Notes under the pieces: model-generated
What the model saw: the letters and a program-made list of their open reading frames with translations, nothing else
Databases searched by the model: none
What the model was told of the DNA's origin: nothing
Assembly (NCBI GenBank): GCA_004431415.1
Contig: QPMI01000029.1
Span: 124,001 to 188,000, forward strand
Length of the DNA: 64,000 nucleotides
Origin: Cyanophora paradoxa CCMP329
Lineage: Eukaryota; Plantae; Glaucophyta
Direction of reading: 5' to 3'
Position numbers and translations under genes: made by a program
Part shown: piece by piece, positions 26,428-64,000 of the stretch
Position numbering within the stretch: position 1 is the first letter of the stretch
Layout: every line of letters begins with the position of its first letter

Positions 26428-26774
26428 CGGGCGCACCTGCGCTCACGTACGCGTACACAAGTGAAGGCGCGTGGCTCCTGCTCCTCGCGGCGAGAAGCTG
26501 CGCACCGAATCCGCCGAATCTCGGGCTCGCGATGGACTCGAAAGTCGCGGGCTTCGAGAGGTCCTGGTTCCACTTTCCGAGAGAGGTCACTCGAGCGACG
26601 GCGGCCGCGATCTGGCGAGCTCTCGGCTCCAGACAGTCCAATCTGCGATCAGCGGCGCGCGCGTACGCAAACACACCGGTCAGAAGCGCGGATGCCCTCG
26701 CCGGCTTTCCCTTTGCGCCCCGCGTGCTCCGGCGGGGCGCTCCCGTCCCGAGCGCTTCTTTTATCGCCTCTCGA

Positions 26775-42700: not shown

Positions 42701-44533
42701 ATGGCCTGAAACAAACAAATAAGCAAGCACCAGCTCGTCCGAATCCATTCACACAGACCCCGCACAATTGCCCTTCGTATCCGTTGTTGCACTTGGACAC
42801 GTAGGGACTTTCTGTATCCACTAGGAATGCCAGCAGGTTCCGTCGCGCAGCTGCAGTACAAAGGGAAGTATTCTGACCTCCAGCTCCACTCGAATCCGAC
42901 GCGTTTCGAGGACACGTGTCGTTAGAAAGTAAAAACGTGCTTGAGCTCACGATCGAGGCTGGTGGCAAGCCCCCGAGACAGCTCTCCTTTCCGTTCAGAC
43001 ACTCTATGAAAACGTTCGGGTCGTATGTGCTCTGGAACCAGCCCCTGCAGATATATATCAGCACGTAGAAAAACAATTGCTGCCGGCGTCGCAAGCTTAA
43101 GCTTGCGAACAGAACACTGGCATACTCTTTTGCGTAAAGTTTTGCGCCGCCATCGCAAATGGCGCCTTCAGGGCATCGACGGCAAGCCGCGTCCTGCGGG
43201 TTGAGGCTGTAGAAATTGGGCCCACTGCGAAAGGACAGCTTTTAAAACATGTGTTGTAAAGAAGAACGCTTCACAATTCGAACGAACCACTCGCTGCAAA
43301 TCCTGGCCGCCTTGTCGAGGATTTCGCCAGGAATGCACTCTCGCAGGAAGACAGAGAGCGGGGCCGGTTGCAGCGGCCGATCCGCGACCGAGAAGCTCAG
43401 ATTGTACGCCGCGCCCGGCATCTCGATTAGGCGGACGTCAGAGAGAAAGGCAACGCCGTTCAGCGTGGCGTTTGTAGTCGTTCCTGTGTACATGCGATCG
43501 CGAGTTGAGTCAGACATCAGCTTGTTAAGCATCGAGACGCTTAAGGCTTGTACGCGACGCGCACCTGTCAACGAGGTCGATGTGCTCGTTGTTGAGATTT
43601 GAATGAACGATCCAGAATCCGCCACGATGGAACTGCATGATTATCTTCAGGATTCGGCAAGAGAGATCTTTAATTTGCACGTGCACGAACCCGTAGGCAT
43701 CCTTCATCGTCACCTCGAAAACAATGGACTTGCCGCTCGCTACGTCAACGGGCTGGGACCGAAGCTCCGGCACGATGCGTTCGGTCGGCGTGGCGCATGC
43801 GGAGCCGTATGCCGCCGCGTTCTCCGAGTAGGCGGTGCACGCATGTGAAGAGAATCCCGTGCACACGGAGAGGTCCGGTGTGTTTACGTACACTCCGCCC
43901 CCGCCGACTTGAGCGCGGTTCATGAGGACAGAAGAATTCGATAACGACGCGCCGCCGCACGCGTCTTTCTCAATAAACAGTCCGGCGCCAAGCGATGCTG
44001 CGTTTTGCCTTACTGCGATGGAGTCTAGGCTCATGTTGCCTCGTTTGACGAACACGGCTCCTCCTCTCACTGCAGTGTTGTTCAAGAGCGTGCAGAAGGT
44101 CAGCTTCAATACTGCACTGCTCGCGGCATGCACTCCCCCGCCCTCAGCTGCGCCCTTCATTCAATACTTCGCCCCGGTGCAGGTTTCGGGGGCCATGGCC
44201 ACTCACTCGCGGTATTCGCCTCCAGCAAAGTCTCGTGCAAGAACAGCTGCCCGTCGGCCTCCGTCCCAACTGCGCCTCCCCGGCCCCGAGCCGCATTCTC
44301 CTTCAGGGTCGATGCCGAAATCCAGACCGAAGAGTGTCCGGCGGCGTACACTCCCGCAGCGTCCCCTACAGCCGCCTGCCCCTCCAACAGCGTCGGAAAA
44401 CCTGCACGATTTCCGGTAATGCTGCTGCCGTCGATTCGAACCGCTGCGTGTCGGTCTGCTGCAACGCCGCCCCCCGACACTCCAGCGACGCAGGCCGAAA
44501 CGCTTGATCGAGAAAGCAGCAGATGCACGCGGT
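39738..44533 (-). CDS. Polymorphic-membrane-protein/pectin-lyase-repeat, Cys-rich, multi-pass membrane protein; 5' part cut off by the viral insertion
   Basis: N.A..GG(A/G)V beta-helix repeats (ENAARGRGGAV, NNTAVRGGAVFV, NRAQVGGGGVY). LRECIPGE, CRRCPEGAICDGG, CNNGYEGQLCGVC. Several TM exons (IVLVFFFQPMII, YGVGVPAGTAVFLW, FSFLY, LILHMRIQP). The reading frame is open up to the junction at 44,533. Confidence 0.8.
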
Positions 44534-44816
44534 ACACATAGTAAAATGCGGAGTTTTAACCCTCGGCTTATCTTAATTGATTTTGTTGATATATCTCGTA
44601 TATTCTATTTCAATCAATCGATAATCTGTGTATATCTTATCGAATATTCATTTATTTCGATTATTTTGTATTCTTTTCGATATTTTATCGTAAATTTCTC
44701 TTATTTTCCGATTAGTCTTACTGAGTCTATCGATAATCTGTATATATTTCCGAATAATATAACTGAATTTCAATTAGATCTTGCCTCTGGTTAAAACTCC
44801 GCATTTTACTATGTGT
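44534..44816. repeat. Terminal hairpin: perfect 28-bp inverted repeat closing a ~227-bp imperfect AT-rich palindrome
   Basis: ACACATAGTAAAATGCGGAGTTTTAACC (44,534-44,561) is the reverse complement of 44,789-44,816; the inner arms keep pairing with many mismatches. Confidence 0.95.
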
Positions 44817-45058
44817 GATTGGTCTGTTTGTTTAATTCTTTTAATCGATATTATATTCATGTACTTTCTCGATTAAATTTAATTAAATTTAATTCATTTA
44901 ATCGGAAATATATCGCTAAACTCGATTAAGATCCATAAATGATTCATTTGTTAAATAAAATAAATCGATCTCTTATTGAATTCAATCGTAATTATACATG
45001 AAATTGATATGTTTTTATCATGTTTTAATGATTCTAAGGGGGGACCCTTAGAAAATTG

Positions 45059-45402
45059 GGTGTCACAGGTGTCACAGGTGTCACAGGTCAATCCCAAACT
45101 TTTGATAGTTGATTTTTATATATGTGAAAACTTTGGGATAGACCTGTGACACCTGTGAACAACACCATTTATGGTAAGATCCTCTTTTATAATGAAAAAC
45201 TCAGTAACAATAAGTAAGAAGTTTATCTATGTAATTCTACTTGAATAAACAAATGAAATAATCGAGTGTCACAGGTGTCACAGGTCCATCCCAAACTTTT
45301 GAGAGTTCATTTTTATGCTATAGAAAACTTTGGGATAGACCTGTGACACCTGTGACACAAACCATATTCAGTAAGGACCTCATATATTGTGAAAATCTCA
45401 GT
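45059..45402. promoter_or_regulatory. Two tandem copies of an iteron palindrome (GTGTCACAG)2-3 - AT spacer - (CTGTGACAC)2; putative replication origin
   Basis: Copies at 45,059-45,158 and 45,266-45,358 within a ~200-bp tandem unit; third copy at 62,036-62,152. Confidence 0.7.
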
Positions 45403-45789
45403 GTTAGTTGGTGTAGTTGATTCAAAAAATGCATTTTATACTCTGATTCATTGTTATTTCCTGTGAAATTTGAGTCAACTCAACCCACTTAGTCAACCCT
45501 TGCATTGAATTCGTAACAAAATCCATATACTATCGATTAATATGAGTCAACCTTGAGTCCACTTTAATTATAGGGGGAATCTAGGGCAGATGCTGAGGTT
45601 TTAGTGTAAGGAAATCGAATAGTATTCGAAATACTTGACATTGCTTAATGTAGGGTGCATTCATATTTCGGCTATATCATACAGTATAATTTCTATCGTA
45701 AAGAATGACCGGAATCCGGAAAATAATCATTGTATAAAGCTATTGTAATAAAAAAGGTAAATTACCCTGTTTATCATTATAGAAACTCA

Positions 45790-46188
45790 TCAAAACGGGA
45801 ATCTATCATGTTTATGTCTCTCAGTCTTCTCAAATGTTAAGAAATTCATTGTTTTATCGATCTCATCAGCAACTGATTGTGTTTTATGCTGAGCTTCTTT
45901 ACCACAACTGAATATATCAATTGCTAACATGCCTTCATTGGAATAACAATGAGCTGTGCAATGGCTTTCATCTAACAGCAGAACCAAAGCAAAACCAGGA
46001 GGTGATAGTTTGCCATCAAATATCTCACAATGCTTATGAACAATCCTAATACCTTGTCTCAATACTGCTTGTTCAAGGGTTCCCATAATCCAATTACCTA
46101 GGAAGCTAACATGCTCATAACCTGTTGCTATAGCTGATTTAGCCTTGTAATCAAGCATAACATGAAAGCCTCTGTATTTAGTCTCCAT
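45790..46188 (-). CDS. speD: S-adenosylmethionine decarboxylase proenzyme (prokaryotic class 1B type, pyruvoyl-dependent) or neofunctionalised homolog
   Basis: 132 aa; G.H.MLD, GF..VLLLDESHCTAH (E|S autocleavage motif), LAIDIFSCG. Confidence 0.85.
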   Translation of the reverse strand: METKYRGFHVMLDYKAKSAIATGYEHVSFLGNWIMGTLEQAVLRQGIRIVHKHCEIFDGKLSPPGFALVLLLDESHCTAHCYSNEGMLAIDIFSCGKEAQHKTQSVADEIDKTMNFLTFEKTERHKHDRFPF

Positions 46189-46211
46189 TAAGAATACCTT
46201 AGAAAAATTAA

Positions 46212-46484
46212 CTAGTCAAACCTAATGCAAATATCCCTATACTCTACTCTGATTGATGAAGTAGCTCTTTTCCTGTGTGCTTGACTCTTTCTTTTGTTAC
46301 AGTCCCTACACCCTGATCCCTTCACATGATTAAAGGGATAGGTAAGGATCACTTTATTACACTGCAAACATCTCACAGATACTTTCTCTTGAGCTTTGAT
46401 GTAATGTGTCTCACTGTAATCGAATTTATCTTTACCATGAACTGTCATAGCAGCATCAATAAACTTTTTTGTTTTACTATCCAT
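46212..46484 (-). CDS. DUF723-like zinc-binding protein (repeat typical of viral homing-endonuclease-like proteins)
   Basis: FI..A..VHG.DKFDYS...Y..AQEKVSVRC..C.......NHVKGSGCRDC. Confidence 0.7.
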   Translation of the reverse strand: MDSKTKKFIDAAMTVHGKDKFDYSETHYIKAQEKVSVRCLQCNKVILTYPFNHVKGSGCRDCNKRKSQAHRKRATSSIRVEYRDICIRFD

Positions 46485-46506
46485 ACTCTATATATAATCA
46501 ATATTC

Positions 46507-47340
46507 TTATGGAGCAGTATCCTGTCCAAAAATGGGGAAATATCGATTTGTGCCATAATACTCAGCATAGGTATTCTGCCTTGCAATAAAATCGGTTCTC
46601 TCAGCATATAATACACACTTGTAGATACCAAACTTGGTGGCTCTAACCAGAAACTGATAATCTTCCAAACCAAAATTGACTCCATGATAAGCAATTCCGA
46701 AATTATCATATGGGGTGATCACAACAGCAAAATTAGGAGTTCCACCCTCTACTTGACATACAGCATATACATCTGGTGGGATATCCACAACTACCTTGTA
46801 GTGGTCACCAATTTCAACAAGAGAGTCTACTACTGCTGTTTGTTCATTTACAACAATGGGGAATATCTTTATAATGTATGGGGCATTCATGCTGGGGACA
46901 TAGGTTCGAATTCTTGTGTTAGGATCAATGGGATTGGGTTGATCATTCACAAATAGAGGCGCTCCAACAGCCCCACCAACCCTAAGACCATCACCAATAT
47001 AAGCTCCCCCCGATTTGCAGTTAATAGCTCCCGACCTAGATTCAAAAGAATAAGTAGACAGAGGATCTCCATAGCTATCTGGGTCTCCATAATGAGCAGA
47101 GAAGTTTGCATTGGTAACAAGTAGCTTAGTTGTCTTAACTATTCCATTATTTTTATCACATCTGAGTTCCTGTAATCTCAGTTTATGGGTGGAACCAAAG
47201 GTGTTCATTGTAGGTTGGACCTCTGTTGATTGGAGACCCTCTACATCATCAAAAGTAGCATGCTGCAGAACATGGTTTGCTGGTGCAGCTAATGATAGCT
47301 GAGGTGTAATAATTCGTTCAAGTGGGGGTTGCTCAGCCAT
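46507..47340 (-). CDS. Putative virion fibre/spike protein, paralog A
   Basis: 277 aa; shaft-like GGAYIGDGLRVGG; C-terminal VITPYDNFGIAY...YKCVLYAERTD resembles head domains of viral fibre-like proteins; clearly similar to the next ORF. Confidence 0.55.
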   Translation of the reverse strand: MAEQPPLERIITPQLSLAAPANHVLQHATFDDVEGLQSTEVQPTMNTFGSTHKLRLQELRCDKNNGIVKTTKLLVTNANFSAHYGDPDSYGDPLSTYSFESRSGAINCKSGGAYIGDGLRVGGAVGAPLFVNDQPNPIDPNTRIRTYVPSMNAPYIIKIFPIVVNEQTAVVDSLVEIGDHYKVVVDIPPDVYAVCQVEGGTPNFAVVITPYDNFGIAYHGVNFGLEDYQFLVRATKFGIYKCVLYAERTDFIARQNTYAEYYGTNRYFPIFGQDTAP

Positions 47341-47363
47341 TTTACATTAAAGGGATATATCTT

Positions 47364-48218
47364 TTATGGGGTCGGGTCATCAATAATATCTGGCTCCGCA
47401 TAGAATCCGGTTGTGAAGATATCAGCAACATTTACCCCACGAAGTGCTGATACAGCTGCTATATCTGTTCTCAGTCCCATAATCATAGTATTGTATACTC
47501 CAACCTCAGTGACAAACAGATCATAGGTAAATGTCAAATTGTTATAAACACAATATCCTCTGCCAAAATGGTTCGAAGCTTGAACAAAGAATAAGTAGTT
47601 GTGTCCTGGTTGATTATTATTGGCTCTACACATGGAAAGCATTGCAGTGGGAAGAGGAATATTTCTTCTTACTCGATCAGTTCCTGTAATGGAAACTAAT
47701 TCCGAATTCTCAAGAGTTACAGAGGATGCAACATAGAAATGCAAAAAAGGTTGCTGTGCAACAGGTGTGTAGAAACGAATTCGTTGTGGGTTCTCCACAT
47801 TTTGTTCGAGAGTATCTGGGACATCATTGTAGGAAACAGATGAAGATAGCTGACCTGAAACTCTGCAGCCACCACCAATAAATGCTCCTCCTGATCTCAC
47901 AGTTACAGCAGCAGTGTTTTTATCATAATCAAGGGCTTTCAGATCAACACTGTAAGCATCAGGACCTCCATTAGTAGGCTGAAAGAAGTTAGCATTTGTG
48001 ACAAGAAGTCGAGTTGTTTTAACCACACCAGAATTCTTATCAGCTCTCAGCTCTTTAACTCGAATAATCGAATTTTTATCAAAGGAGTTGCCATTGGAAT
48101 TGGGTCTCTCTGTGGATTCTAAACCACGAACCTCATCATTTACTTCATGCTGGCGAAAATGCATTGCAGGGGATCCAAGGGAATATATAGGCAGTTGAAC
48201 TCGATTATATTCACCCAT
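47364..48218 (-). CDS. Putative virion fibre/spike protein, paralog B
   Basis: Shares ELR.DKN.G.VKTT.LLVTNANF and SGGA.IG.G.RV.G with paralog A; HFGRGY...YNTMIMGLRTD. ATG at 48,218 follows a TAAAAG motif. Confidence 0.55.
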   Translation of the reverse strand: MGEYNRVQLPIYSLGSPAMHFRQHEVNDEVRGLESTERPNSNGNSFDKNSIIRVKELRADKNSGVVKTTRLLVTNANFFQPTNGGPDAYSVDLKALDYDKNTAAVTVRSGGAFIGGGCRVSGQLSSSVSYNDVPDTLEQNVENPQRIRFYTPVAQQPFLHFYVASSVTLENSELVSITGTDRVRRNIPLPTAMLSMCRANNNQPGHNYLFFVQASNHFGRGYCVYNNLTFTYDLFVTEVGVYNTMIMGLRTDIAAVSALRGVNVADIFTTGFYAEPDIIDDPTP

Positions 48219-48257
48219 TGCTTCTTTTACTAAGAAGGAAAGAAAAATAAACTGCAA

Positions 48258-48563
48258 TCAAGCCAAAGTGATTAAATTCGATCCAAGGGATTGGTAAACA
48301 GTTGAAAGAACTTGCAGGTTGGACGTCATTGCTTTAATGTTGTTATCACACTCATTGTATTTAGCAACAGGGTCACCATATGCAGCTTGAGCAAGGACAT
48401 TAACCAAGAGGTTTTTATACTCATTTACAACTGGTGAGAGCTTGTTAGTTTGCTGAATCGTTTTTTCAACTGTTTGTAATGCGTTTACAAGGGTGATTGT
48501 ATCAAAAGAAAGTGCAACAGGCTCAGTAGAATAGGTGGTTCCACCAAGAGGATAGGTCGCCAT
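48258..48563 (-). CDS. Hypothetical helical protein (101 aa)
   Basis: Intact ORF packed directly against the upstream gene; no recognised motif. Confidence 0.6.
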   Translation of the reverse strand: MATYPLGGTTYSTEPVALSFDTITLVNALQTVEKTIQQTNKLSPVVNEYKNLLVNVLAQAAYGDPVAKYNECDNNIKAMTSNLQVLSTVYQSLGSNLITLA

Positions 48564-51500
48564 TTATAATACTGTGATATTTTTAATTTGGTCTATTTGA
48601 CTTTGGAGATTCTCACAGGTTTGTGTTAAATCTTTGCATTTTTGGGATAACTCCTTCACTGCTTCAATGAGAACCGGAATTAAACCTGTGTATGCAAGGG
48701 TCAAATAATTTTCGTGATTTTTACCTACTACTTCTGGTATGACTTTTTCGACATCTTGCGCAATCAAACCTAAGTTTACTTTCTGTTTTCCATCACCAAT
48801 CTTTTTGTAACTCACACCCTGTAATTTCTCAATTGCTGAAAGGGCGCCGGTTATATTTTTAATGTCGGTTTTGTATCTTCTATCACTTCCTTGTGTAAGC
48901 CATCCCAAAAGTAAACGTCACCATTATTATAAAAAGCTTGCATTGTTATATCATTTCCTGCTCTAAAATGGATCATTTCGTAACCATAACCTTTAATGTA
49001 TGTAGTTGATGATGAACCGAAATAAACTCTCCCATTACCTTCATCTGATGTTATCCAAGTTCCGGTTGCCCAAGTTGTGCGAGCATCTTTACTATATACA
49101 TTATCCCAACTGATCATACCATTTGCTGGTGAGGTTCTCCCTTTTTCTTTCGTCCATCCAACCATACCAATATAACATCTCCCTTTTCTTGCAACAAATC
49201 TAACATGTGAGAAATAATCACAAGCAAAAGAAGCCCACGCCAAACCATCGTGATAATCTGTGGTTCCATAATTTGAGACAGTCTGATAAGTATTAACTCG
49301 CATAATGTGGAACCATCGACCTGCTCGATAGCCTCCAATATCGAAATATCGACAATTCGACCAACACAAATATTGAACATGACATGTTTGCATATTTGCT
49401 GGGACTTCAATTTGCGCCCAGTCTCCACTTGTTGAATCACCTTCAACGATACTATAAAATCCATCCACAGGATTAGAAACAGAAGCTGTCCAACCTGTCC
49501 CCCAAGAACCACTAAATGATAGACCACCACTACCTGTTCCACTCCAAGTATCAAAACCTATAATGTTTCCAACTAAATTTGTTGTTAGTAGATTTGGTTT
49601 ACTATAAATGTTATCCCAAGAAACATAGCCTGTGTGACCACCATAACTACTTCCTGTCCAAGTGCGAGTAAATCCAATGCCCATTATGTGAACTCTTCCT
49701 ACCTTTGGAATAATACGAAGGCGAATAAAGCGATTTCCCAACATAATAGGGACATTTTGTAAACCATTGTGGTTTCCATCTGGTGCGCTTTCATATTGAT
49801 GATAACTATTCACTCTTGCAATGAAAACCGCATTACCTTGTCTATTGATTCCCCAAATCTCAAAGTAACGACAATTTACCCAAGGGAGATATGTTAAGTG
49901 GGCTGTTCCCGTATATAAATCAGTGGGTATTGTGTAATCAACCCATGAGCCGTTAACAACAGTATCGCCACTCTCATTATTGTAAGCATACCCACCGTAA
50001 TTATAGTAGGGTTCCCATGCTGTTCCACCTTCAAAACCCCAACCTCCTGCATAATTATGTGGCGAATTTCCTGCTACCGAAGCATCATACTCTACACATC
50101 TAGGCATTGTTTTGTCGCCAAATTTATAATTTGTAGTTGCATTTATTGAACCTCCGTAAATGATTGTTCCGCTTATAGTCGGAGCGGACACAGTATTAGT
50201 AACTGCAAGGTTGCCGTTTTCATATGATTGTAAAATTGTAGCATCTGCTGAGTTTCTGAATACAACACACGCATTATCGTTATTAGGTCTACCTCGAATA
50301 TATGTAGCATTTGCATTTGCAAAATAGAACCGCTCGTAGTTATCTGTTGATTTTAACCATGTATTAATTGCCCATGTTGCCGTTCCTGGAAGGTCTGCGG
50401 CTGTAATTAATGCCGGACGACTGTAAATATTATCCCAACTTATCAAACCATTCGCTGGCGCTGTTCTACCTACTTCTTTTGTCCATCCAAGCATTCCAAT
50501 GTGAGTTCGTCCTTTCTTTGCGAAAATTCCAATATATGAGAAACTCCCACAAAATACGGATGTCCATAATAAACTCGAATGCCACAGTGTGTCGGCGGTG
50601 TTTTGAATATTTTGATATGTATTAACTCTCATAATATAATTCCATCGTCCATTGCGGTATCCCTGAATATCGAAATATCGCCCATTCGACCAACATAAAT
50701 ATTGAATGTGACATGTTTTCATTCCTGCTGGAACTGCACACTGCATATACCCATCGCCGCTTGCATCGTCTGTTTGGTTGCAATAAAAACCCTCTACTGG
50801 GTTATCTGTTGTGGGTTTCCATCCTGTTGTCCAAGCGCCGGATTGGAATGATACACCTGCGCTATTCCAACCACTCACCACATCAAAATCGGAATATTTG
50901 CCGACAGGATTAAAAGCGATATTATCATAATGAATTAATCCAACATCATTATCGGTTGCTCTTTGTCTACTCCAACCAAATACACCCGTAAAATAAATGC
51001 GACCTTTCACACCTTTTACCACAATCTTTTTATAGAAATCACAGTTTATAGAAGTATAGATAATAGCATTATAGGTACCATCTTGAATTCCGCTATCTTG
51101 TATTGCTTGATAGTGATTAACACGTTTTAAGAAATGCTGATATCCATTAACAGTTTCACCGTAAATATCGAAATATCTACAATTATGCCAATTTAAAAGT
51201 TGAATATAAAACGATTTCATGCCTTCTGGAATTGTCCAACGCATCCAACAACCCGTAACATCTGCGTCATTCTCAGGTGTGGTGTAACATCCTGTTTGTC
51301 CCGTTCTATGTCCTGTCCAATTAACATTCCAATTATTTGCGCTTCTATCTGTCGAAACCACATCTAATTGGTCGAAATCATAACCTTTTGGTATTGTGGT
51401 TCCACCAATTTGTAGAGTGGTAGCATTCACAGTTCCTGTGACAGTTCCACCTGTAAGAGGCAAATAGTTTGCAAGAGCTGTTGTTAACTCTGCATCAGTT

Positions 51501-54500
51501 GTATAACTGCTTAAATCTGCAGAGGTAAGATACCCTTTATTGGTAAGGTAATCATCTGTGACCACACCTGAAAGGGTGGTATTGTGTAAGTTTTTTGCTG
51601 CCATCCTCTGATTGACTTCTAAGGCTCCACCTGATGTCGTTTTTATCCATGCAATCTCACATTTCCCATGATCATCTGTGGGTTGTCCTGCTACAGGAAG
51701 GTAGTTTACAACTTTCTCCCTTGTGAACACAATTTTAGGTCTTGCTCCATCATATGCGCTTTGATCTGTAACGTTTATTTGAATAGCTGCTGAAAAATCG
51801 GCTACTTGTCCTGTTTCACCTGGGTGATAATTCGTAACATAGATACTGGGGAAAGTATCATTTACTCCTACATTGAAATCACCATCATAAACTCCATTTA
51901 CAATTGGATCCCTGGGTAATCTTACTGCAAGAGTTCCCTCCATTGGAGTGCCTGTTTGACCTGTAAAAGTCCCATTGAGACTAACATAATGATCATTCAA
52001 ATGCAATCTTTCAGGTGTATTACTCGATTGGTAAAGTGTGACTCCATTGAAAACATTTCCGATTGCATTCAACTGTGCAAACACTGGTTGTTGATCGATT
52101 TCACTCCAAGGGTGTCTGTGATTGCAGTTGGTGATCTGGGAATAATCATGACTGTGTGGATCAGGTGGAAAGGTTAATGGTGGATTTGTTATATGCTCCC
52201 ATAAATGCTCATGAGAACTGGGTGGGAAGGTTAATGGTGGATTTGTTATATGCTCCCATAAATGCTCATGTGCAAAATCTGTTATTTCATCTTTTGTGTG
52301 GGTGTGGTTATCGATCCAACCTAAAACTACATTGGATGTAGGATGATTTGGTAGATTCGCTTCAATATTCACAGTCAAATAGTCGACTTCTAGATTACTT
52401 CCATAAATATTACTTGCCCATAGGTTACTTGTGAAAATGTTACTTGTATAAAGGTTACTGGTGTAGATATTGGAAGTGACTGTAAGGTTTGTGTCATTTT
52501 TGATCACAAAAAGAGAAAGAATATTTGTGAGTTCACCTTCATCAATATATCCTTGATCTTCTAGATAATCCTCTGTGACCACTCTCGAAATATTTTCATT
52601 GTGTATGTTTTTTGCAGCCATCCTCTGATTGGCTTCCAGAACCCCACCATAATCTGTTTTAATCCATGCAAGCTCTGCCCTTCCATAATTATCATTTGCA
52701 GTTCCCACTATGGGAATGTAGGAATACTTATCTCGACTGAAAACTATCATTGGTCTTGAGCCATCTAAGCTGCTTACATCTGCTACATGAACCTGTATAG
52801 CAGAGTTGTAATTTTGGTAGGTTGCTGGGTCTGTTGGGACTCTGAATGTATCTGTGGGAATGTCAGCCTCCATGTAGCTTGACACAAAGATATTTGGTAT
52901 GGTTGCTCCTGGTGGTGGTGGGGTTTCAAAAGAGCCTGGTAATGTCCTAATATGAAGTGGTCCTCTCATAGCTGAATTTGCAAGTGTCCCATTCACATGT
53001 ACATAGTGTTCATTCAAAAAGATTCTTTCTGGGACATTACAAGTCTGATAAAGAGAAACCCCCAAGTTATCAAGAGGCTCTACCTTTGCGAATTCTGGTT
53101 GGTCATTGATCTCATCCCAAGTATGTTCATGTTTGCTTGGTGGGAACTCAGTAGGTATCCCATCAATTTCTCCCCAATCATGCCTGTGATCCTCTGGTGG
53201 ATACTTTTGAGGTTTGCCTAAGATCTCATCCCAATCATGATTGTGATCCTCTGGGGGATACTTTGCAGGTTTATTATTAATTTGTTCATAATCAGGGAAG
53301 AACTCCAGATCTCAGGTCGAAATCCATCTGGTAACAATTCCTCATGGGTTCATAAGGTTGCTCATAGTCAACAGCTGGTGGATCATGACCATCTGGTAAA
53401 TACTCCTCATCAGGTTCATAGTTCTGTTCATACTCATATTCTTGTGGGTCAAAACCATCTGGGAGTATCTCCTCCTCATTGGGTCAAACTGATCATACTC
53501 ATATTCTTGTGGGTCGAAACCATCTGGTAAATACTCTTCCTCATCTGGAACGAATTGATATTCATCAAGCTCTAATATATCGACTTCAGGAGGTAAATAC
53601 TGCTCATCTATTTGCTTTCTGGGTTCAATTATAGTTTATTGCGAACTTGCTCCCAACTAACAATATGCTGCCAAAGGCTACATCTTCAGTTGCTGTGTAT
53701 TCTCTTCCAGGCTGTTTCTTTGGTGTTAAATCGGAGGTCCATTTGGAAATGGAATAGGGAATGGAACTGTTGGTCCATTGGGACCATAATGCTCAATTAT
53801 TTCCCTTAGAGTTTTCTCACTCACAAGTTTCTCCCCATTTGCATACACATTGCTGCCATGGATATTTCGCCATTGCCTGGTTCTAATTCCAAGGTCTTTC
53901 ACATTGCTATACAAAGGCAAAAGGTGCCTATCCATTTCGACTAAATCAGGATGTAAATGGATTGCTACTGGTTGACTGGGGCTACTGTTGATTGTAATTG
54001 ATGGCTTTTTTTGATGGACATCTTTTGGAGTAAAAAACCCAAAAGGCTCATTCCTCGCAAAGTCATATGTAATATCCTTGGGGTATACATCATTTGTGTA
54101 GGAGACCTGATTTGTGTTGGCAATGGGACCCACTTGCAATACTTGGGGGACCTCAGCTTTTGCAGTGCTGCCCTCATTGTAAATTCGCAAAGCTGTGTTC
54201 TGTTTGCCCTGCTCATCTTGAACATTGAAAATCAATCGACCACTATCGAACCTGGAAGGTATATCTGGGTGAGTGCCACTGGTTTTTAGTTTCCTAGGTC
54301 TCCTTCTTGTTGCTTTGATCTCTGCCACTTGGTTTGCTTTCACATTACCCAAACTAAAAGCAACACTGACATCCTCTTTATTTGGATCAGTTTGATTCAC
54401 AGATAAAGCATGCTCCCTTGATTGAGTCTTTGAAGAATTATCAGAGCTGTGGTCAATTGAAACTGAACCCTTTACTTTAATATTATCAAAGTTCACATGC

Positions 54501-54562
54501 TTGGTGCTGCTTGCATTATCATCTTGAATGGTTTCTAGATTGGGTGGGTAATTGAAGCTCAT
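48564..54562 (-). CDS. Giant (~2,000 aa) phage-type tail-fibre protein with C-terminal peptidase S74 intramolecular chaperone; split by several 1-bp indels
   Basis: ORF 53,726-54,562, acidic LPDGFDP repeats (53.1-53.6 kb), ORF 48,851-53,065 and ORF 48,564-48,908 join by single-base corrections. HxHxWxxIxxxP tail-fibre repeats; YLPLTGGTVTG; S74 signature SDRRYKTDIKNI...GLIAQDVEKVIPEVV...YTGLIPVLIEAVKEL plus coiled coil. Confidence 0.82.
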
Positions 54563-54605
54563 GGCTTTTACTATATGGATTTATAAAATTCCTGATAAGT
54601 AAAAG

Positions 54606-56160
54606 ATGCCTCTCAGGGTTTGTTTAAGTCTTTCTGGCGGGGGTGCAAGGGGCATTATCATAACCAGGCTGCTCAAAGAAATCGAAAATCGAACTGGCAG
54701 AAGAATAATCGATCTTGTGGATCTTGTAAGTGGAACTTCCACTGGTGGGATCATTGCAATAGGTTTGAATATCAGGCATCCTGATAAACCAGGTGAACCT
54801 AAACTGACAGCAAACGATCTACACAATATTTACCTAGCTCAACTGCCCTTGATTTTTGCAAATCCTCGAAATATAATCGAAAATGCCCTTTTTAATACAA
54901 AGTATGATGTGGGACCCTTGGAGACTGCAATCAATTCAGTTACTGGTGAATCACTAATACAGGATTCCCTAAAGGACATTGTGATTACATCCTTTGATAC
55001 TCAGAATATGAAACCAATATTTATCACAAATGACAACAACTACAACTTTATGCCTTGTAAGATTGCTGCTAGGGCTACTTCTGCTGCTCCTACATATTTC
55101 TCTCCTGTAAGCATTGTTGATTTCAATCGGGGAGTATTTGTCTGTCTCATTGATGGTGCCATTTCGGGAAACAATAATCCCAGTGTGTGTGGTTACAGCC
55201 ATGCAAAGAAGATTTACAGTGATGATGATGATATTATAGTAATAAGTATCTCTTGTGGTGAGGTGGACCCACATTTAGAGTCTGATTATGTGGGTTATGC
55301 TTATGAGACTGTCAACAGCTGGGGAATTCTCTCATGGATTGCCTCAACAGATGGAAGCCCATTGATTAACATGCTCATGGCTGCAAGTGAGCTTTCTGCC
55401 CTTGATAAGATGGAGGAGTTGTTACCCTACAACTATGATCAGGATTATGGGAGATACTATAGGCTGTCAGTGCCTCTTCCAAATCATATAGTAAGCTCCC
55501 TTGATGACACTTCTAAGATCCCAGATATGCTAGCATTCACTGAAAGCTACATAGCAGCAAACAATGATATGATTAATAAGCTTTGCAGCCTTCTAGTAGC
55601 AAACTATGAACTTAAGAACCCTACAAAGGCTTACATCTCATCCACTCTCACTACATCACCTCCTTTGGATGCTAATTGGTATCAGCTTGCAGATGATGCC
55701 TTTACTGCCTCATCCTCTGTGACAGGTAAAGAGCCTTTCATGGCAAGACCTTCAGCATTTGGCTGGGAAGCTGGAGCCTTTGCTCCTGAACAGATATGGG
55801 AAACCCCCACTGAATACCTTCAAGTTGCTTTCCCATATACTTTTGAACTCTCCTCTGTGATTGCCTATGGATCAGGGACACCAATGCTTTTATTAAGACT
55901 TTCAATGTGGCAACATCCACTGATGGATCAACTGGTCTTTTATTCGATCAGATGGGCAAAACAAAATATATGTCTGTGAGAACATTAACAATGCTCACAA
56001 CTCTGGTGATGTGGCTCTATTGAGTGGATTTCCTCTAAGCATCAAGGATGCTTTTTACATAGGTTTCTCTCTCAGAATCAAATATATTCGCATTTATCCC
56101 CTTGTGTATGTGAATGCTCCCACAATGAGAGTTGATTTCACAGGTGCCTTTATTCGATAA
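54606..56160 (+). CDS. Patatin-like phospholipase with C-terminal F5/8 type C (discoidin)-like domain (frameshifted near 55,880)
   Basis: GGGARG, GTSTG, ARATSAAPTYF, LIDGA; then FTASSS...W.A...EYLQV...V..YG; after the shifts ATSTDG and IKYIRIYP.....MRVDFTG. Confidence 0.85.
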
Positions 56161-57081
56161 ACTCCAACTGAAAAGAATTATCGATTCCATTCATATCAAT
56201 CAGTTCACCAAAGTAATCTTTAAACTCAACTGTGAGTTCCCTTATCACCAGGTTTCTGTCATTTATCTGAATGAATTCTGCATGCTCACCACTATGGTAA
56301 ACATAGCCACCTATATCTTTACTCAATTGCAATCTAAGGATAGCTCCCTGGTTATGTGGTTGCGATTTCGGAATTATATTGTGTCTGCTGGCAAAAGGGG
56401 CAAGCTCTTTAATATGCATGTACAGATACTGCTCAGCATTCATATCAGACATCTTATTACTGGTGAAATAGTACTGCAAGGGCTTTGAGGAGAGTCTGGG
56501 TCCTGAGAAGGTGATTCCCCATGCTGGGTGATCAGGTGTAATAGGTTTACCATCATACTTTAAAAGGTTCTCAGGTCGATATGGAGATCCACCAACAGGA
56601 GGAGTGCTATAATACCCAGTGGTGTATTCAGTAGAACTTACACCCAAAAGCTTCCCTATTCGCTTGTTGCTTGCAATAAAACGAAACTCATGATTACTGT
56701 AAAACTCCACTTTATAGGTTGTTGGGTTGTAGAATATTTTGAACTCAAAAGCTACTGTTTTGCCTGCAATTGTTTGGAAGCTTGAATAGTTCAGCCCATA
56801 ATTATAAGGGTGTGTGACCCCAAAATGACCCTGATTGATGTAGCCACTGGGAAGGGATACACTTGTTGTGTGATCACTTGGTTATATGAACCATCTTGGT
56901 AGTTAAAATCAACTGTTAAATGATCAGTTCCCACACTGTTATAGATACTGTTTGGAATCTCTGCATAGAGAACCCTGCATTCTCTTGGTCTCTCTACTGG
57001 AGTTGTGAGGGTGACCCTGTAAGAGTTTTCATTTTGTCCTTGGCTTCTATCTCTGCTATCAATATTAACAAGTCGATTCAT
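56150..57081 (-). CDS. Minor capsid (penton-type single jelly roll) protein 1, frameshifted near 56,800
   Basis: VNIDSRDR...YRVTL...AEIPNSIYN at the N-terminus; YLYMHIKEL and LTVEFKDYFGELIDMNGIDNSFQLEF at the C-terminus. Confidence 0.78.
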
Positions 57082-57110
57082 TTTAATATATAAATATAGA
57101 TAAAAGAAGA

Positions 57111-58120
57111 ATGCCTGTGGATTACATCGAGGTTAGCTCATTTAATACAATCTCTGGTGATGGTCCCACATCAAGCTTTGTGGCTCGACTTCCCAGTACT
57201 TATGAGAATGTGAGGGCTGTGAGACTGGTCTCAGCCGAATTTTATAACAGTATCCCTATGGTGAGTGGTGAAACCAAAGCAGGAGATGTGACAGTTGACA
57301 ATGCATTTAGCATTTATTATTCTGAACAAACTCCTGGAGCTGGAAGCTCAGGAATTCCAACAGTTCGCCCAGCTGCTGACTATGAACAATGGAAACAATT
57401 CATTATAAGTCGAAACACCCCCATCCAAAGCCACCAGCAACTGGTGAATGTAATTAACTCTAAATTCGAAGGCAGAAATCCCCAACCATCCATTCGCTGC
57501 AAATGGATGAATCACTGAAACGAATTATATTCCACTCAGCAGTACCATTTTACTTGGCTTTCTCAGTAGCTGTGAACCCAAGCCAACAAACAATCCAAAA
57601 GCTGTTGAGTTCAGCTAGACTGCTTGGTCTTGATCCTGGAAGATATGGCAATTCCTCAATCCAATCCCAAGTTTATGATGCTCTCACTGATGGAATCTTT
57701 ACTGGTGGTCGCGTGAATGGCATTATATCTTCTTTTGAGCCTGAGAAGACCAGGGACAGTGTTTTGTTTGTGAGAGTAAAGGAGCTGGGTGATCTGGTGC
57801 AATGTGGGGATGGTCTTCTGACTGGTTACTTTCACAAAATAGTGGTCCCTGATAAAGACTATGGTGAGCATGTTGTTTACAATTCAACAGAAGCTCACCC
57901 ACTTTACAAATACTATAATAAGAAGGTTGGATTATCCACTTTTTCGGTTGATATTGTAAATGCTGTTAATGAACCAGTTGATTTTGAGGGTCAACCTGTT
58001 CATCTGACCTTTGAAATTCGCTATGGTGATGAGCCAGCAGGAGACCCAGTTTATGAATACTTTAAGATGAGAATGTCGCAGCTTCACCCTTCCTATCCAG
58101 TTATTACAAGCTTCGCATAA
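57111..58120 (+). CDS. Minor capsid (penton-type) protein 2, frameshifted near 57,510
   Basis: IEVSS...FVARLPSTYENVRAVRLVSAEFYN; LFVRVKEL; FSVDIVNAVNEPVDFEGQPVHLTFEI. Confidence 0.72.
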
Positions 58121-58173
58121 ATTAAGGATCATTGGTAGATTTTTTATGTTGCAGTATAATAAAAGAGAATATA

Positions 58174-59540
58174 ATGGATATCACTTCCACTCTTCAAAGA
58201 CTTTCGCTGAAAGAAGCCCTAACAACCCCAGAGGAGGCGAAAGCCTTTTTCCTGGATAACTCCCTTATGCTTGGTCTCGAATCCAAGTCTAAGCCAGTTC
58301 TTGTTGTTGTGAATCCCAGCAATACTTTTGAGAATAATGTAGGAAATCGCATTTCCTTCAAGCTACCTCGCTACAATTTCTGTGGAAAACTCGAACTTGC
58401 TTTCGACCTTCCTGCCATCACTTTTGCTGGTGATACTGATCTGGTTCGCAATGGATACACTCGACCAGTTGGTGCTTTAGTTCAGCGACTTGAAATTACC
58501 TATGGATCTTACACCTACCATATTCCATCTGATTTCCTTGCTCATTTCCCCCTGGTCTATTATTCGGAGGATCAACTAGCTAAAAAGAAACGCTCAATGG
58601 GCATGGTTCATGGTATCCCTGCTCATGGAACTAACCGACTTGGTGGCTCATTTTTCGTTGAAATCCCAGTGCCTTGGCTAAATCACTACCTTCCCTTGGT
58701 GCTTTATCTGGTGAAATGGTTGTTACTGTTTGGTTTAAGGATGCTGGTAAGGGTTATGTTGAAACTTCCTATGGTGGTCGCTCTCTCCCTGTTGTTGGTG
58801 GGACAGTTGCTGATAAGACAGAAGATGATGGTCTTGGTGATACTGCTAATGCTACACTTGCCCATGTTGGTCAAAACATCACCACTTTCAGTCTTGGTGC
58901 AACAACCCCTGTCATTTCTATTACTTCTCCTCGCCTTTACATGCATGCTATCAATGTTTCTGATGAGCTTTTCGCTACTGTAATTGAAAAAGTAAAGACT
59001 ACTGCATGGCTATTCCCTCCCTTGATATTGGATTTGTAGATGCTAGTGCTTTCCCTGCCAAGGGCAATGCCCAACCCAATCGAATTAACCTCTCTCAAAT
59101 CTCAGGTCTTGTATACGCTCTGCTTGTTCAGTTCGTGATCATGAAACTGTTGACAAATCCAATGGCTCCCACAGTGTTCTTAAGACCTATGCTAACTCCA
59201 AAGAGATAACATTCACAACTGAAATAAATGGACAGCGACTTTTTGCCACTGAGCAATTTCCCTACTCAAAGGTGCTGAGCTAATTGCTGATGCCTTCAAA
59301 TGCTCTAACATGGATAAGGTTGCTGATCGCTATGTCCTTTCAGGATTGCCTTTCTGCCTTGATGGAGAAAAGGCGATTCGAAATATTGCCCAGTCTGGTT
59401 ATGTTGATTTAACAAATTCCTCCTCTTCATTCCTCACCCTCTACATGCCTTCAGATAAGGTAATCGATGTTAATGTTCGCGCTCTCATGCATAGCTTTAT
59501 TATTGTCGACAAAGATGGTCTGAGACGTATCAATCTTTAA
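58174..59540 (+). CDS. Major capsid protein, double jelly roll, NCLDV-like; several frameshifts
   Basis: GNRISFKLPR...LELAFDLP...GALVQRLEITYG; FVEIPVPW...LPLGAL..EMVVTVWF; PRLY; PFCLD...SGYVDLT...VNVRALMHSFIIVDKDG; ~455 codons, between the minor capsid and ATPase genes. Confidence 0.82.
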
Positions 59541-60370
59541 ATGTTACCATTTTCAGTCTCCCTGCATTATTTTTATCTGTCTTTATTTAGGAAGATCTAC
59601 AACAATGACTATACCAGTTCTGATCTGGATGAATTTGTGGCTGGTGAAATGATAGAACCCCCTTTCAGACTACTCATACTAGGTAAAAGTGGATGCGGAA
59701 AAACTGAAGCCGTAAAATATTATTTGAAACAGCTGCATGATGCCAAAAAGATTGATACAACCCTTATTATATCCGCTACCTCATTCTCACATTTCTGGGA
59801 CAAAGCTGCTACTGTTCAACTGGGTGCATGGGATCCCCAATACATGTCGAAAATTATAAAAGAAAGAGAGGCAAAAAGGGAGAAAGGAGAAGAACTTAAC
59901 CATATGCTGGTGATTTTAGAGGATATGATAGAAAATGACCAGCTGGATCTCAGTCGAGATAAAACAGTTGGAATGCTTTATGTTCGTGGCAGACATGTGA
60001 ATATATCAATTATAACTATCTCTCAGAAATTACGAAAGGTTGCAAGTGTAATTCGCTGCAATAGTGATATAGTAATTATGGTTTGTGCAAGCAATCAAAA
60101 AGAGCTGGAAGCATTTGCAGAGGAGTTTTCAACTTTTCCTCGCAAAGAAGATTTCTATCAACTGTTTGAAGAGTATGTCACTCATATCAATTCCTTGTTA
60201 TACATCTTTCAAGTATAATGTGGCTACTATGTGATAAAGCCGATTTAGTTGGAGATTTCGATTTTCCTCGCTTCCACAGGAAGCCCAAGAAGAAAGAAGA
60301 TGAACTGAAACCACCAGAAAAAGAGGAAGCCCCTAAAGAAGTGAAAAGCCAAGTCCATAGCAATAAATTG
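59541..60370 (+). CDS. A32-like (FtsK/HerA superfamily) genome packaging ATPase; start and end affected by frameshifts
   Basis: Walker A GKSGCGKT, Walker B LVILEDM, A32 motifs RGRHVNISIITISQ and IRCNSD. Confidence 0.92.
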
Positions 60371-60422
60371 ATGCGATATAAACGCGGTTTATAAAATTAT
60401 CTCTCATTCTAATAAAGATACA

Positions 60423-61042
60423 ATGCCTCCAAACGAAAGATAGGGATCCCAGCTGGGGCTGTTGGCTATTCAGGTGGTGGAAACAATGGATCCATTAATA
60501 CTGAACCAATGAAATTCAATGGTATGAATGAGGTGAAGCCCTCACAGCAAGAAGAGGACCTCTTAATGCTGCCTATGAGAATCAGTCGATGACAAAGCCC
60601 CACAGGCTTCAACCAGTGACCAACTCAACATCTCACCAGAAGCTTCGAAAATGAAAGCTGTTGCTGAGGGTGCCAGGCGAATATTGGTGCTGCTGATGAT
60701 AAAGGTTTAGGCTTGCAAGATCTATCACTGGCTCGCAAAGGTGAAGGTCTTAGTAAGGAATCAGACAAGGTAATCCAGTCTATGGCTGGTGAAGTCACAT
60801 ATAAGACTGCTCCCACTCAAAATATTCATCGAATTCCAAAGGCTCAATGGGATGAGATGACTGCTAAACTCAAAGATCTGGAAGCCAAATCAAGTGCCTT
60901 GGAGCAGTATGTTACTGAGAAGAAAGAGAGATCCAAGCTAAAGGAGATGCTTCGAAAGGAAGTTTATAAAATGGGCATTACTGGTGTCCCAGATAAACAG
61001 TTTATTGCTAAAAAGAGAACCAAATTGATGAGCAGGCAGTAG
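60423..61042 (+). CDS. Hypothetical viral protein with coiled-coil C-terminus (fragmented)
   Basis: ATG after TAATAAAG at 60,423; ORF 60,713-61,042 is the intact 3' portion. Confidence 0.4.
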
Positions 61043-62035
61043 ATGAAATGAAAACAAAGACCCAGAAGGGAACTATTGAACCTGGTGCCACAAAGCTGAA
61101 GTCGAAAAGGAGTAGCCCCAACAGTATATAAAAGACGAGTTTGGCTTTAATTTTCTCTGTTTTATTAGAGACATGGATATAATACGAAAGTTATTGAGAT
61201 GCTCAGTCTGCATGTGGTGAGCAATTGCCACAGTGGATGCTGTGACACAACAATAGAGTTTGAGATGTCAGATACTGAGGATAATGTATCTGAAGCAGAG
61301 AGAGAAGGAGATCAACAGTTTCAGTGGAGTCAATGCCAGCAGACCCACAGAGTATACATATGAGCAACAGGAGTATCCAAGGAGAAGTTCTTTACAGCGA
61401 AAACGTTTTCTCAGCAAATATTAATGGAGGATACAATTAGTTTGATCGAGTTTACTAGTGATGACCTTTAACTGAGGGTGCTATTAGACACATTCTAGCA
61501 AAGCAGAAACGATATAGAGAGACCCAGCATATAGAGAGTATAAGAAACAACAAGCCCTGGCATCCTATTATCGCAGAAAAGCCCAAAAAGAGAGCAGAGA
61601 CCCAGAGGGAGACCGATTAAATATTATTTGCCAACTGAAAGTAGCAATGGACCCCAGGTCTATAAGATAATTGAGAAAAGCGGTCTCAGTATGCAACTGA
61701 GGCAGCTATAAAATATATACAAAGGAATTGGCTTTATACTTGCAATCAAGTCACAGATAACTTTGTAAATATGCTTTTGTTGTTTTTTGTTTGCATTCTC
61801 AGACACTGAAACAGTTATGTGAATGTTTACTGATCTATTTCTCTTTGGTTTGTTGCATACATATTGTAACCTTTTAATCTCTGTGACATTTCGATATATG
61901 CCCTATATCTCCATGCTTTATGCATTTATCTAACTCAGTCATGGTCATCTCATCAAGAGTCTTTGCCATTTTGTCTTCACTATACACAATCAAGTAAGCC
62001 TTAAGTATTCTTGTCAAATTTTGGTCTTTTCGATC

Positions 62036-62152
62036 GGTGTCACAGGTGTCACAGGTGTACAGGTCTATCCCACCGATTTTCAAAATCATTTTTTATGTTG
62101 ACTTTCCTGGGATGGACCTGTGACACCTGTGAACAACACCATTTCAGTAAGG
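62036..62152. promoter_or_regulatory. Third iteron palindrome, immediately downstream of the D5 primase-helicase
   Basis: GGTGTCACAGGTGTCACAGGTGTACAGGTCTATCCCA...TGGGATGGACCTGTGACACCTGTGAACAACACCATTT, homologous to 45,059-45,170. Confidence 0.75.
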
Positions 62153-62199
62153 CTATAAACATTACATATACAAATCAATCATTATCGTTTGTTTAATAT

Positions 62200-64000
62200 T
62201 CACATCCTTCCATTGTCTTCTTGAACCCTTGTTATCTTTCGAAGTCCAATGTAGCCCTTGCTCTGGTTCCAGAATTCGTTTAACCTCTGATTTAACATTG
62301 AAGATTTCCCTTACTCTTTCATAACAGATACACATTCAACTTTATCATCTACACTTTGTATGATCTGTAAATGATATCATGGAAACAAAGTCGTTAGCAT
62401 TATGTGTAACCTCGAAATTATCTCGAAGCCATTCACCAATCTTGTCATTTTCAGCTATAAGTTAATTCCCTGTTCAATAATCGATTGAGGGGGACTTCTT
62501 AAGATCTCTTCAACCTCTTTGTTCTTCCACATATCCAGTAATATCTTCATGTGAGCCATCTTATACTCATCATCATTGTGAAGAAGTGTGAACAGAGTTG
62601 GATCAGCTTTCTCTGACCAGCTTCAGGCTTCTCTCTGAAATATTGTGATCTCTGGTATGAAAGTCTTCTTTGAATTGCGAAGTCTGGTTTATTAATAGTC
62701 AAATTGTCATTAGTTGTAATGTAGACCTGAAACATTGGGTAAGGATAACTGGATCTTTGAACAAGGCTCTCACAGTCATTTCATTTCCACCTGTGACCTC
62801 CTTAATCTTGGAGATCTGCAGTTTATCACCATCTTCAGCCTCATTACTGAATACAAGTCGCTTTCAAGGAGTTTGGCAAGTTCAGGAGTAGCCTCTGATG
62901 AGTTCTTTTTAGGCTTAGTCCAATAGGATATTTCGAGAGGGCTGTAATAACGACCAGATATCTGTTTGCAGTATTCCTGAACAAGTGATTTACCATTAGC
63001 ACCAGCACCAGTCCACATATAGAACTTCTGGGATTTAGTTGATCCACTAAGGGCAATTGCAATGGATGCCAGAAGATACTTTCGCTCTGCTGGATCATCC
63101 ACAATCTCTTTATAAATCTGATTTAGATGCTCTATTTTCTTGGGGTCTACATTTTCAGTATAGTCATAACCCACAGTCTTGCTCACCATATCTTCCAGTT
63201 TACCCTTTCTGAAAGTCATAGTGGTCAGATCAAATACACCATTTTCGAATCCAATCACATATGGAACAGTGTCAATCTTCTCAAAGAATTCATCATCATT
63301 CAGCAGTGGGACCAAGTCAGTCAGAAGGATTTGCGAAATCCTGATTGTTTAAGGTTTTGGCAATGGTCATCAATGTTTTGGATCTTTCTTCGAAAGTTGC
63401 TTTGTTTCCTCATCCTTTAAAGCTCTTTGACTATAATGCACAGCCCTTCCAAGGTATTGGGGGCAACAAGACGGCTTATATCTAGGTAAATCTTTAGGTT
63501 TGTGTCATCATGCTCCAAATCCCAGATCAGTATTGAGTTTGAACCATGACTTTTTGGAGTATCTCCATGTATGTTTAAGAACCTCTTTCATACTAAACTC
63601 ACATTCATAATGAGCGCCACCAGAACCAGCGGATTTATCTATAAGATTGAAGATATCAGATTGCATTCCAATGCAGATGAATCGTTTTTTGCAATTTCCA
63701 CTGTAGCTTGACACAATGTATTTGTTATCATCTCTTTAGCTTTCATAACATACCAGTTATTCGATTCATGTGAACCATTGCAGCATGGGCAATTGAGTCC
63801 CTTGTTAGCAGCATCAAAGTTAAAGCCAAGTTCAGTTTTAGAGATTATATTGGGATGCATAAATCCATACCACCAGCTCTTTGATAATATTGTTTTCCAG
63901 TTCATCATGTGAGGTAGCATTAGCAGTATACTCACTCTTATAGATGTAGTTATCTATTATCCACTTTTGAAGTCATCAGTAGGCTCATTGAAATCACAGG
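62200..64000 (-). CDS. D5-like primase-helicase (SF3), 5' part outside the window; multiple frameshifts
   Basis: D5_N (DTVPYVIGFENGVFDLTTMTFRKGKLEDMVSKTVGYDY), Walker A WTGAGANGKS, ATPELAKL, C-terminal KGYIGLR; upstream CPCC..SH zinc motif. Confidence 0.9.

Follow-up and report, generated by a model that had tools for sequence, protein, structure and literature searches.

Graded avoidance of CG in an endogenous Polinton-like virus of Cyanophora paradoxa, with a CG-retaining fibre tip as a putative exchangeable cassette

A stretch of 64,000 nucleotides from the glaucophyte Cyanophora paradoxa CCMP329 (contig QPMI01000029.1; hereafter the window) carries a viral element in which the dinucleotide CG is scarce nearly everywhere except in the distal part of one fibre gene, which raises the question of what purged the virus of CG and why the fibre tip stands apart. 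A preliminary description had ascribed the purge to long exposure to a host methyltransferase or defence, and the tip to a recent swap from another virus or phage.

The element begins at 44,533, where GC content drops from 63% in host DNA to ~40%, and is at least 19.5 kb long. The features of the window that matter here are as follows.

44,533-64,000, no strand assigned: endogenous AT-rich Polinton-like virus (PLV), recognised by a step in GC and CG, by gene content and by multiple copies in public contigs; the right end lies beyond the window
44,533-45,050, no strand assigned: left terminal region, with 47-nt inverted arms (44,534-44,580 and 44,770-44,816) and TCGA enriched ~7-fold
45,790-46,188, minus strand: S-adenosylmethionine (AdoMet) decarboxylase (PF02675, E 3.9e-11)
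48,564-48,908, minus strand: peptidase S74 chaperone, the C-terminus of the fibre (PF13884, E 7.5e-18), frame broken in this copy
49,097-49,567, minus strand: tip domain D4, mostly CG-purged, 56% identical in amino acids to D2
49,607-50,107, minus strand: tip domain D3, with the lowest sister depth and sister contigs ~99% identical
50,426-50,899, minus strand: tip domain D2
50,918-51,385, minus strand: tip domain D1, adjoining the boundary
51,284-51,566, no strand assigned: boundary at which the conserved shaft gives way to the variable tip, marked by depth steps, a loose end at 51,546 and the change-point
51,421-53,700, minus strand: fibre shaft with phage-tail-like repeats, CG-purged, with frame breaks in its 5' part
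54,606-55,979, plus strand: patatin-like phospholipase (PF01734, E 1.2e-20)
58,174-59,540, plus strand: probable major capsid protein, in pieces
59,541-60,218, plus strand: A32-type packaging ATPase (PF04665, E 3e-13), a PLV hallmark
62,200-64,000, minus strand: D5-type primase-helicase, in pieces, start beyond the window (PF08706, E 1.5e-9), a replication gene as expected of PLVs

Being multi-copy and AT-richer than its host, the element agrees in these respects and in length with PLVs of 14-40 kb. The first piece of the broken ORF preceding the ATPase is 66% identical to protein P0007 (456 aa, tig00020904_g15213.t1), a homologue that matched neither Pfam nor PHROG; from the size of the ORF and its position beside the ATPase we infer that it encodes the major capsid protein, in PLVs a double jelly-roll. 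Candidate ORFs for a minor capsid protein, at 56.1-58.1 kb, gave no match in a Pfam scan. No maturation cysteine protease, the marker of virophages and, together with pPolB, of Polintons, was found among the 20 viral ORFs scanned from this element, which is incomplete in the window; an integrase (rve) is absent from the window, the right end of the element being outside it. Seven viral ORFs had no exact-sequence match in the protein collection. The search for free-living relatives returned none among viral contigs with the ATPase and P0007, nothing for the capsid alignment in metagenomes and no match for P0002 as a single query; one match at 0.76 in the Atlas is a lead only.

Glaucophyte PLVs with the same equipment have been surveyed, and among 156 such elements the A32 ATPase was recorded in 139, lipase in 89, AdoMet decarboxylase in 66, D5_N in 40, S74 in 37, rve in 85 and MCP-POL in two, the capsid being mostly missed by standard models (PMC12220804 Table S6). 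In the 19 host rows of that table, AdoMet decarboxylase occurs in glaucophytes and otherwise in three cryptophyte rows only, and S74 is described as common in PLVs (PMC12220804).

Some further observations concern the element and its surroundings. Inverted GTGTCACAGG repeat cassettes, which are candidate replication origins, lie at 45,054-45,170, 45,260-45,367 and 62,031-62,144, one of them immediately downstream of the D5 helicase gene. The 19-mer GTGTCACAGG also occurs in 19 IMG/VR contigs, several with a similar inverted layout; tblastn with 13 ORFs from the PLV matched none of these 19 loci, and none carried the CG signature. A small Cys-rich ORF (46,212-46,484, minus strand) with weak zinc-finger matches (E ~0.01) is possibly a homing-endonuclease remnant. 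The C-terminal extension of the patatin (55,620-55,979), presumably similar to a discoidin domain, had no Pfam match. Discoidin-patatin fusions are known from glaucophyte and rhizarian PLVs (PMC12220804). On the host side, a minus-strand ORF with GGA-type repeats has its start ~370 bp from the left end of the PLV, which lies upstream of it (region 43,525-44,530), and an RNA 3'-phosphate cyclase gene (26,700-27,500, plus strand; PF01137) appears by eye to have very short introns.

CG depletion was measured with the motif VCGB ([ACG]CG[CGT]) in the body of the virus (45,051-48,563 and 51,421-64,000; 16,093 bp) and in the tip (48,600-51,420; 2,821 bp). The ratio of observed to expected CG falls from ~1.1 in the host to 0.07-0.45 in per-kb windows of the PLV, except at 48-51.4 kb; it is 2.2 in the left terminal region, the terminal ~500 bp being rich in CG, chiefly as TCGA. 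Host DNA in the window shows no CG depletion. The body contains 26 VCGB sites (1.6/kb) and the tip 39 (13.8/kb). The best change-point segment, 48,674-51,339, holds 39 of 67 VCGB sites; its log-likelihood gain is 36.1, whereas 1000 permutations reached 15.6 at most. When protein and codon usage were kept, the body had 16 VCGB against a mean of 113.8 in 200 synonymous codon shuffles (minimum 92), and the tip had 38 against 40.4 expected. The shaft is nearly empty, with two sites at 51,421-51,800 and none at 51,801-53,700. Context bias and a step near 51.4 kb, both of them expected from the preliminary description, are thus borne out by the counts, as is the breakpoint that it placed near the motif GGTTIPKG: the motif lies at 51,383-51,406, the last dense VCGB is at 51,339, and sister depth steps at ~51,284 and 51,566. 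Its statement that CG occurs freely in ~48.6-51.4 kb was right for the tip as a whole but passed over its unevenness, since observed/expected VCGB is 1.40 in D1, 0.80 in D2, 1.57 in the linker, 0.47 in D3, 0.21 in D4 and 0.80 in S74. Three VCGB lie in the 683 bp of D4 and its tail, whereas D1-D3 have 31 over 1,821 bp (p=0.018), and three TCGA sites of D4 align to other CG contexts in D2.

The rule by which CG is avoided is likewise finer than the one first proposed, namely that CG survives in the body nearly always as TCG or CGA. The depletion is real, but a two-class split is too coarse: relative to local composition, TCGA stands at 1.24, TCGC at 0.55, TCGG at 0.29 and TCGT at 0.24, and the VCGB classes at 0.04-0.16. 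A half-site model that gives each flanking base its own factor (T 1.12, G 0.45, C 0.28, A 0.21) accounts for all ten NCGN classes, these symmetric counts being equally compatible with a 5'-flank and a 3'-flank rule; its deviance is 4.0 with six degrees of freedom, compared with 75.6 and eight for the TCG/CGA split. CG avoidance is thus shown to be graded, with T tolerated best, followed by G, C and A. In the host the flank factors are 0.91-1.15, so that no comparable gradient exists there, although TCGA is mildly high (1.65). Independent effects on the two strands would be the pattern expected of a methyltransferase that is sensitive to flanking bases. Flank preferences of this kind are known to exceed 400-fold in some cases (PMC11879396), and context-dependent mCG (CGC/GCG) has been described in Amoebidium (PMC11244446).

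Arginine codons bear on whether the motif was selected against or simply decayed. In the body, CGC, CGG and CGT make up 22 of the 56 Arg codons that follow T and 2 of the 82 that follow A, C or G (p 1.7e-8); the corresponding fractions in the tip are 8/23 and 4/18 (p 0.5). Arg itself has not been lost overall, since 56 of all 138 body Arg codons follow T, equal to the background of 0.40. After non-T bases Arg is moved to AGA/AGG, of which 15/85 follow T against a background of 0.295. In the capsid, all 15 Arg residues aligned to P0007 are conserved, and seven of their nine CGB codons follow T. Because Arg CGN codons code for another residue once deaminated, codon choice under decay alone should not depend on the preceding base; the redistribution without loss therefore favours selection on the motif rather than decay only, and the selective cause would be either escape from silencing or a mutation load linked to methylation.

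The tip comprises four related domains of ~160 residues, D1-D4, followed by S74. D1 and D3 are each 32% identical to D4. A model of the domain built from an 11-row alignment is all-β (pLDDT 77), the single-sequence fold being poor (pLDDT 49.5), and Foldseek finds weak similarity to CBM6 and CBM29 (E 3e-4 to 1e-3, TM 0.42-0.58), Eph ligand-binding domains having similar scores. The domains are thus predicted β-sandwiches which weakly resemble sugar- or glycan-binding modules. The repeated domain had no sequence match in Pfam, PHROG or PDB, and D4 searched on its own had none in PHROG. Homologues were found in 11 proteins (P0001-P0006 and P0008-P0012) and at five loci (L020-L024), all 30-40% identical to the tip. 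They share the ~160-residue domain and its WDN-type end, some with S74 or collagen repeats; the domain is single in 10 of the 11 proteins and double in P0001, and none of the five loci has the signature of the body (VCGB 0.49-0.90). Locus L021 combines a cap methyltransferase, a weak capsid-N match and an S74 fibre, and the 110-kb contig L022 encodes RNase III and a helicase; from their gene content we read both as of giant-virus type. No donor above 40% amino-acid identity was found for the tip, and outside nucleotide matches span 34-70 nt only. The tree groups D2 with D4 (100/99), and D1 with both (88/94); D3 sits on a long branch among outside homologues, its fork being open, which hints at a separate origin of D3. 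GC3 (0.19-0.33 in the tip, 0.24-0.39 in the body) and CG-free codon score are alike in tip and body.

Sister copies were examined in short contigs from public runs; 14 such runs, all of one organism, contain half or more of the words sampled. Runs X15 and X20, presumably of RNA, were set aside as a source on expression. In run X1 the summed contig depth, which is not copy number, is 8.9-15.9k from 51,566 upward in the shaft, 5.6-8.2k at 51,284-51,565, 0.7-4.0k over the tip with its minimum at D3, and 17-42k below 48,322; runs X5 and X8 have the same profile. Seven of the 12 joints shown (48,892>49,089; 48,895>49,596; 48,896>50,430; 49,118>50,940; 49,215>50,609; 50,403>50,940; 50,438>50,940) connect domain ends or homologous D2/D4 positions, which is consistent with sisters lacking one to three domains, repeats of 80% likeness being able to mimic such joints. 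D3 sister contigs differ in 3-6 letters over 276-480, and those like D1, D2 or D4 by ~7-17%. Judging from these contigs, the tip appears as a minority, shuffled module, and the order of its domains may differ within one genome. Comparison of fibre tips among sisters, which the preliminary description had proposed, thus places the boundary of a minority tip at 51.3-51.55 kb but reveals no purge in progress: in 26 tip variants among the 40 listed of 492, sisters lose four VCGB and gain three.

Two other features of the sister contigs deserve mention. Many of the single-base frame breaks seen here are not present in them, and that of S74 near 48,903 is missing from about half of the sister depth in two of three DNA runs; such breaks are therefore assembly errors or private decay. 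The regions of the ATPase (59,411-60,067) and helicase (61,382-64,000) have a sister depth of 3.6-6.7k against 10-27k (X1) with the CG signature kept, so that low depth alone does not amount to CG retention.

A second signature overlies the first. GGCC is absent from the whole 19.5-kb element, although the body should contain 24 by expectation, and six GTAC are present in the element against 56 expected; in the host flank both are present at 0.85-2.5x. The tip shares part of it, with one GTAC against 9.2 expected (shuffle minimum 4) and four GCAC/GTGC against 14.2 (shuffle minimum 5), which, together with its GC3 and codon score, means that the tip is not foreign-looking by those measures. Avoidance of GGCC and GTAC is unexplained by CG methylation, and the motifs look like restriction-type targets. 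GATC and AGCT, with two each in the tip against ~10, fell inside the codon-shuffle range and were dropped.

The purge might owe nothing to selection on the motif, methylated CG in integrated copies being deaminated at rates that depend on the flank. We judge this improbable: the 1.3-fold enrichment of CA/TG is in its favour, the multiplicative fit suits per-strand mutation equally well, and three of the four listed sister tip alleles that remove VCGB do so via G>A, but the host flanks retain CG, and the arginine count is intact in spite of the residue changes that deamination would cause. The arginine pattern could nevertheless be mimicked by selection for mutational robustness if rates were very high. 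It is also unlikely, if less remotely so, that the pressure was exerted by a co-infecting giant virus or by competing PLVs, through their nucleases or methyltransferases, and not by silencing in the host. Restriction sites act all-or-none, unlike the graded, multiplicative pattern over ten NCGN classes, and no methyltransferase turned up among those ORFs of the window that were scanned against Pfam. The GGCC/GTAC layer speaks for such an agent, which probably accounts for that layer only. PLV methyltransferases have in fact been proposed as a guard against giant-virus restriction (bioRxiv 2026.06.19.733378), and Dam-type methyltransferases are tabulated for 10 of the 156 glaucophyte elements (PMC12220804 Table S6).

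With regard to the tip, the main rival supposes that nothing was imported: selection on CG would be relaxed this far from the fibre promoter (2.3-5 kb), or overridden by fast diversification, and the CGs would have arisen in place. We regard this as a minority possibility that has to be taken seriously, because the tip equals the body in GC3 and codon usage and shares its GTAC/GCAC avoidance, CG gains roughly balance losses among the listed sister variants, and no donor is at hand. The step is sharp, however, and coincides with the boundary in sister depth, D4 is more purged than D1-D3 although farther from the promoter, and the 3' part of the D5 gene remains purged (VCGB ratio 0.10). Given the same observations on codon usage, shared avoidance, CG turnover and missing close donor, a single recent swap is not borne out, and the codon-usage comparison suggested at the outset lends it no support. 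A transfer of the whole tip with S74 from a bacteriophage is largely refuted and in our view hardly credible. S74 does match 53 PHROG families, mostly tail fibres, and Foldseek also retrieves phage tail proteins (E ~3e-4), but no tblastn match to the tip was found among 50,697 phage records and none in prokaryote genomes, those of its homologues with a readable gene context lie in giant-virus-type contigs, S74 is present in the 37 glaucophyte elements counted above, and the four domains differ in CG signature and tree position. Of the earlier proposal of an acquisition from another virus or phage, what stands is the minority, shuffled module.

We therefore lean, with slightly better than even confidence, towards a graded CG purge driven by a silencing methyltransferase of the host, combined with a CG-keeping tip that is an exchangeable cassette of predicted glycan-binding domains. 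The purge is likely due to selection having removed the sites that a host silencing cytosine methyltransferase methylates best; the pressure first proposed is thus supported as context-specific and selected, with a methyltransferase as its putative agent. The host DNMT1/DNMT3 would methylate TCGA poorly, and PLV copies with few good targets would escape silencing or methylation-linked damage and then spread. Tip domains may be drawn repeatedly from an AT-rich viral pool that is free of CG pressure and would share the GTAC/GCAC pressure with the body, and they may recombine at their conserved WDN ends; D4 would be the oldest resident, largely converted to TCGA. More tentatively, and with rather more doubt than belief, one may suppose that the lineage recoded its whole genome to the TCGA blind spot of the host enzyme as a sequence-level defence against silencing, the signature serving as a residence clock for receptor-binding domains from a pool shared with giant viruses. 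This may be backed by the AdoMet decarboxylase, which is encoded within this CG-avoiding virus. The enzyme consumes SAM, the methyl donor, so that an anti-methylation role is conceivable, polyamine supply being the ordinary reading.

The element and its modular fibre are of known kinds. S74-capped PLV fibres, such as the laminin-G arrays of cryptophyte elements and Gezel-14T, have the same long fibre with repeated domains of glycan-binding type and a C-terminal S74; the repeated domain here differs in being without a Pfam, PHROG or PDB sequence match, and the sister contigs suggest varied domain orders. In the glaucophyte survey, whose main text has the word 'methylation' twice, we found no CpG analysis and no description of such a tip domain (PMC12220804). 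In C. paradoxa, 32% mCG has been reported, with most repeats and viral-origin genes methylated (PMC12344493), and the supplement text of that study holds no analysis of methylation by flanking context. Host CG methylation represses integrated viruses there as in Amoebidium (PMC11244446), and Halocafeteria PLVs are described as without 5mC (bioRxiv 2026.07.28.741278). The counter-defence proposed for a punuivirus (bioRxiv 2026.10.09.758095) and for GKS2 PLVs, in a text where 'CpG' is absent (bioRxiv 2026.06.19.733378), is enzymatic and based on TET, whereas evasion here would be encoded in the sequence, with TCGA as the tolerated context. A literature search with thin coverage of subscription journals and bioRxiv supplements brought up no PLV in which CpG avoidance is graded by context. 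Neither avoidance of CG that is graded and selected nor the dating of fibre domains by it appears to have been reported.

These results suggest that methylation by the host exerts real selection on integrating viruses of protists. The genome of this virus may preserve a trace of the flanks that an uncharacterised methyltransferase of the alga prefers, from which a ranked prediction follows: methylation should be lowest at TCGA, then rise through TCGC and TCGG/TCGT to the VCGB classes. The CG signature also offers a means of dating domain exchange in PLV fibres.
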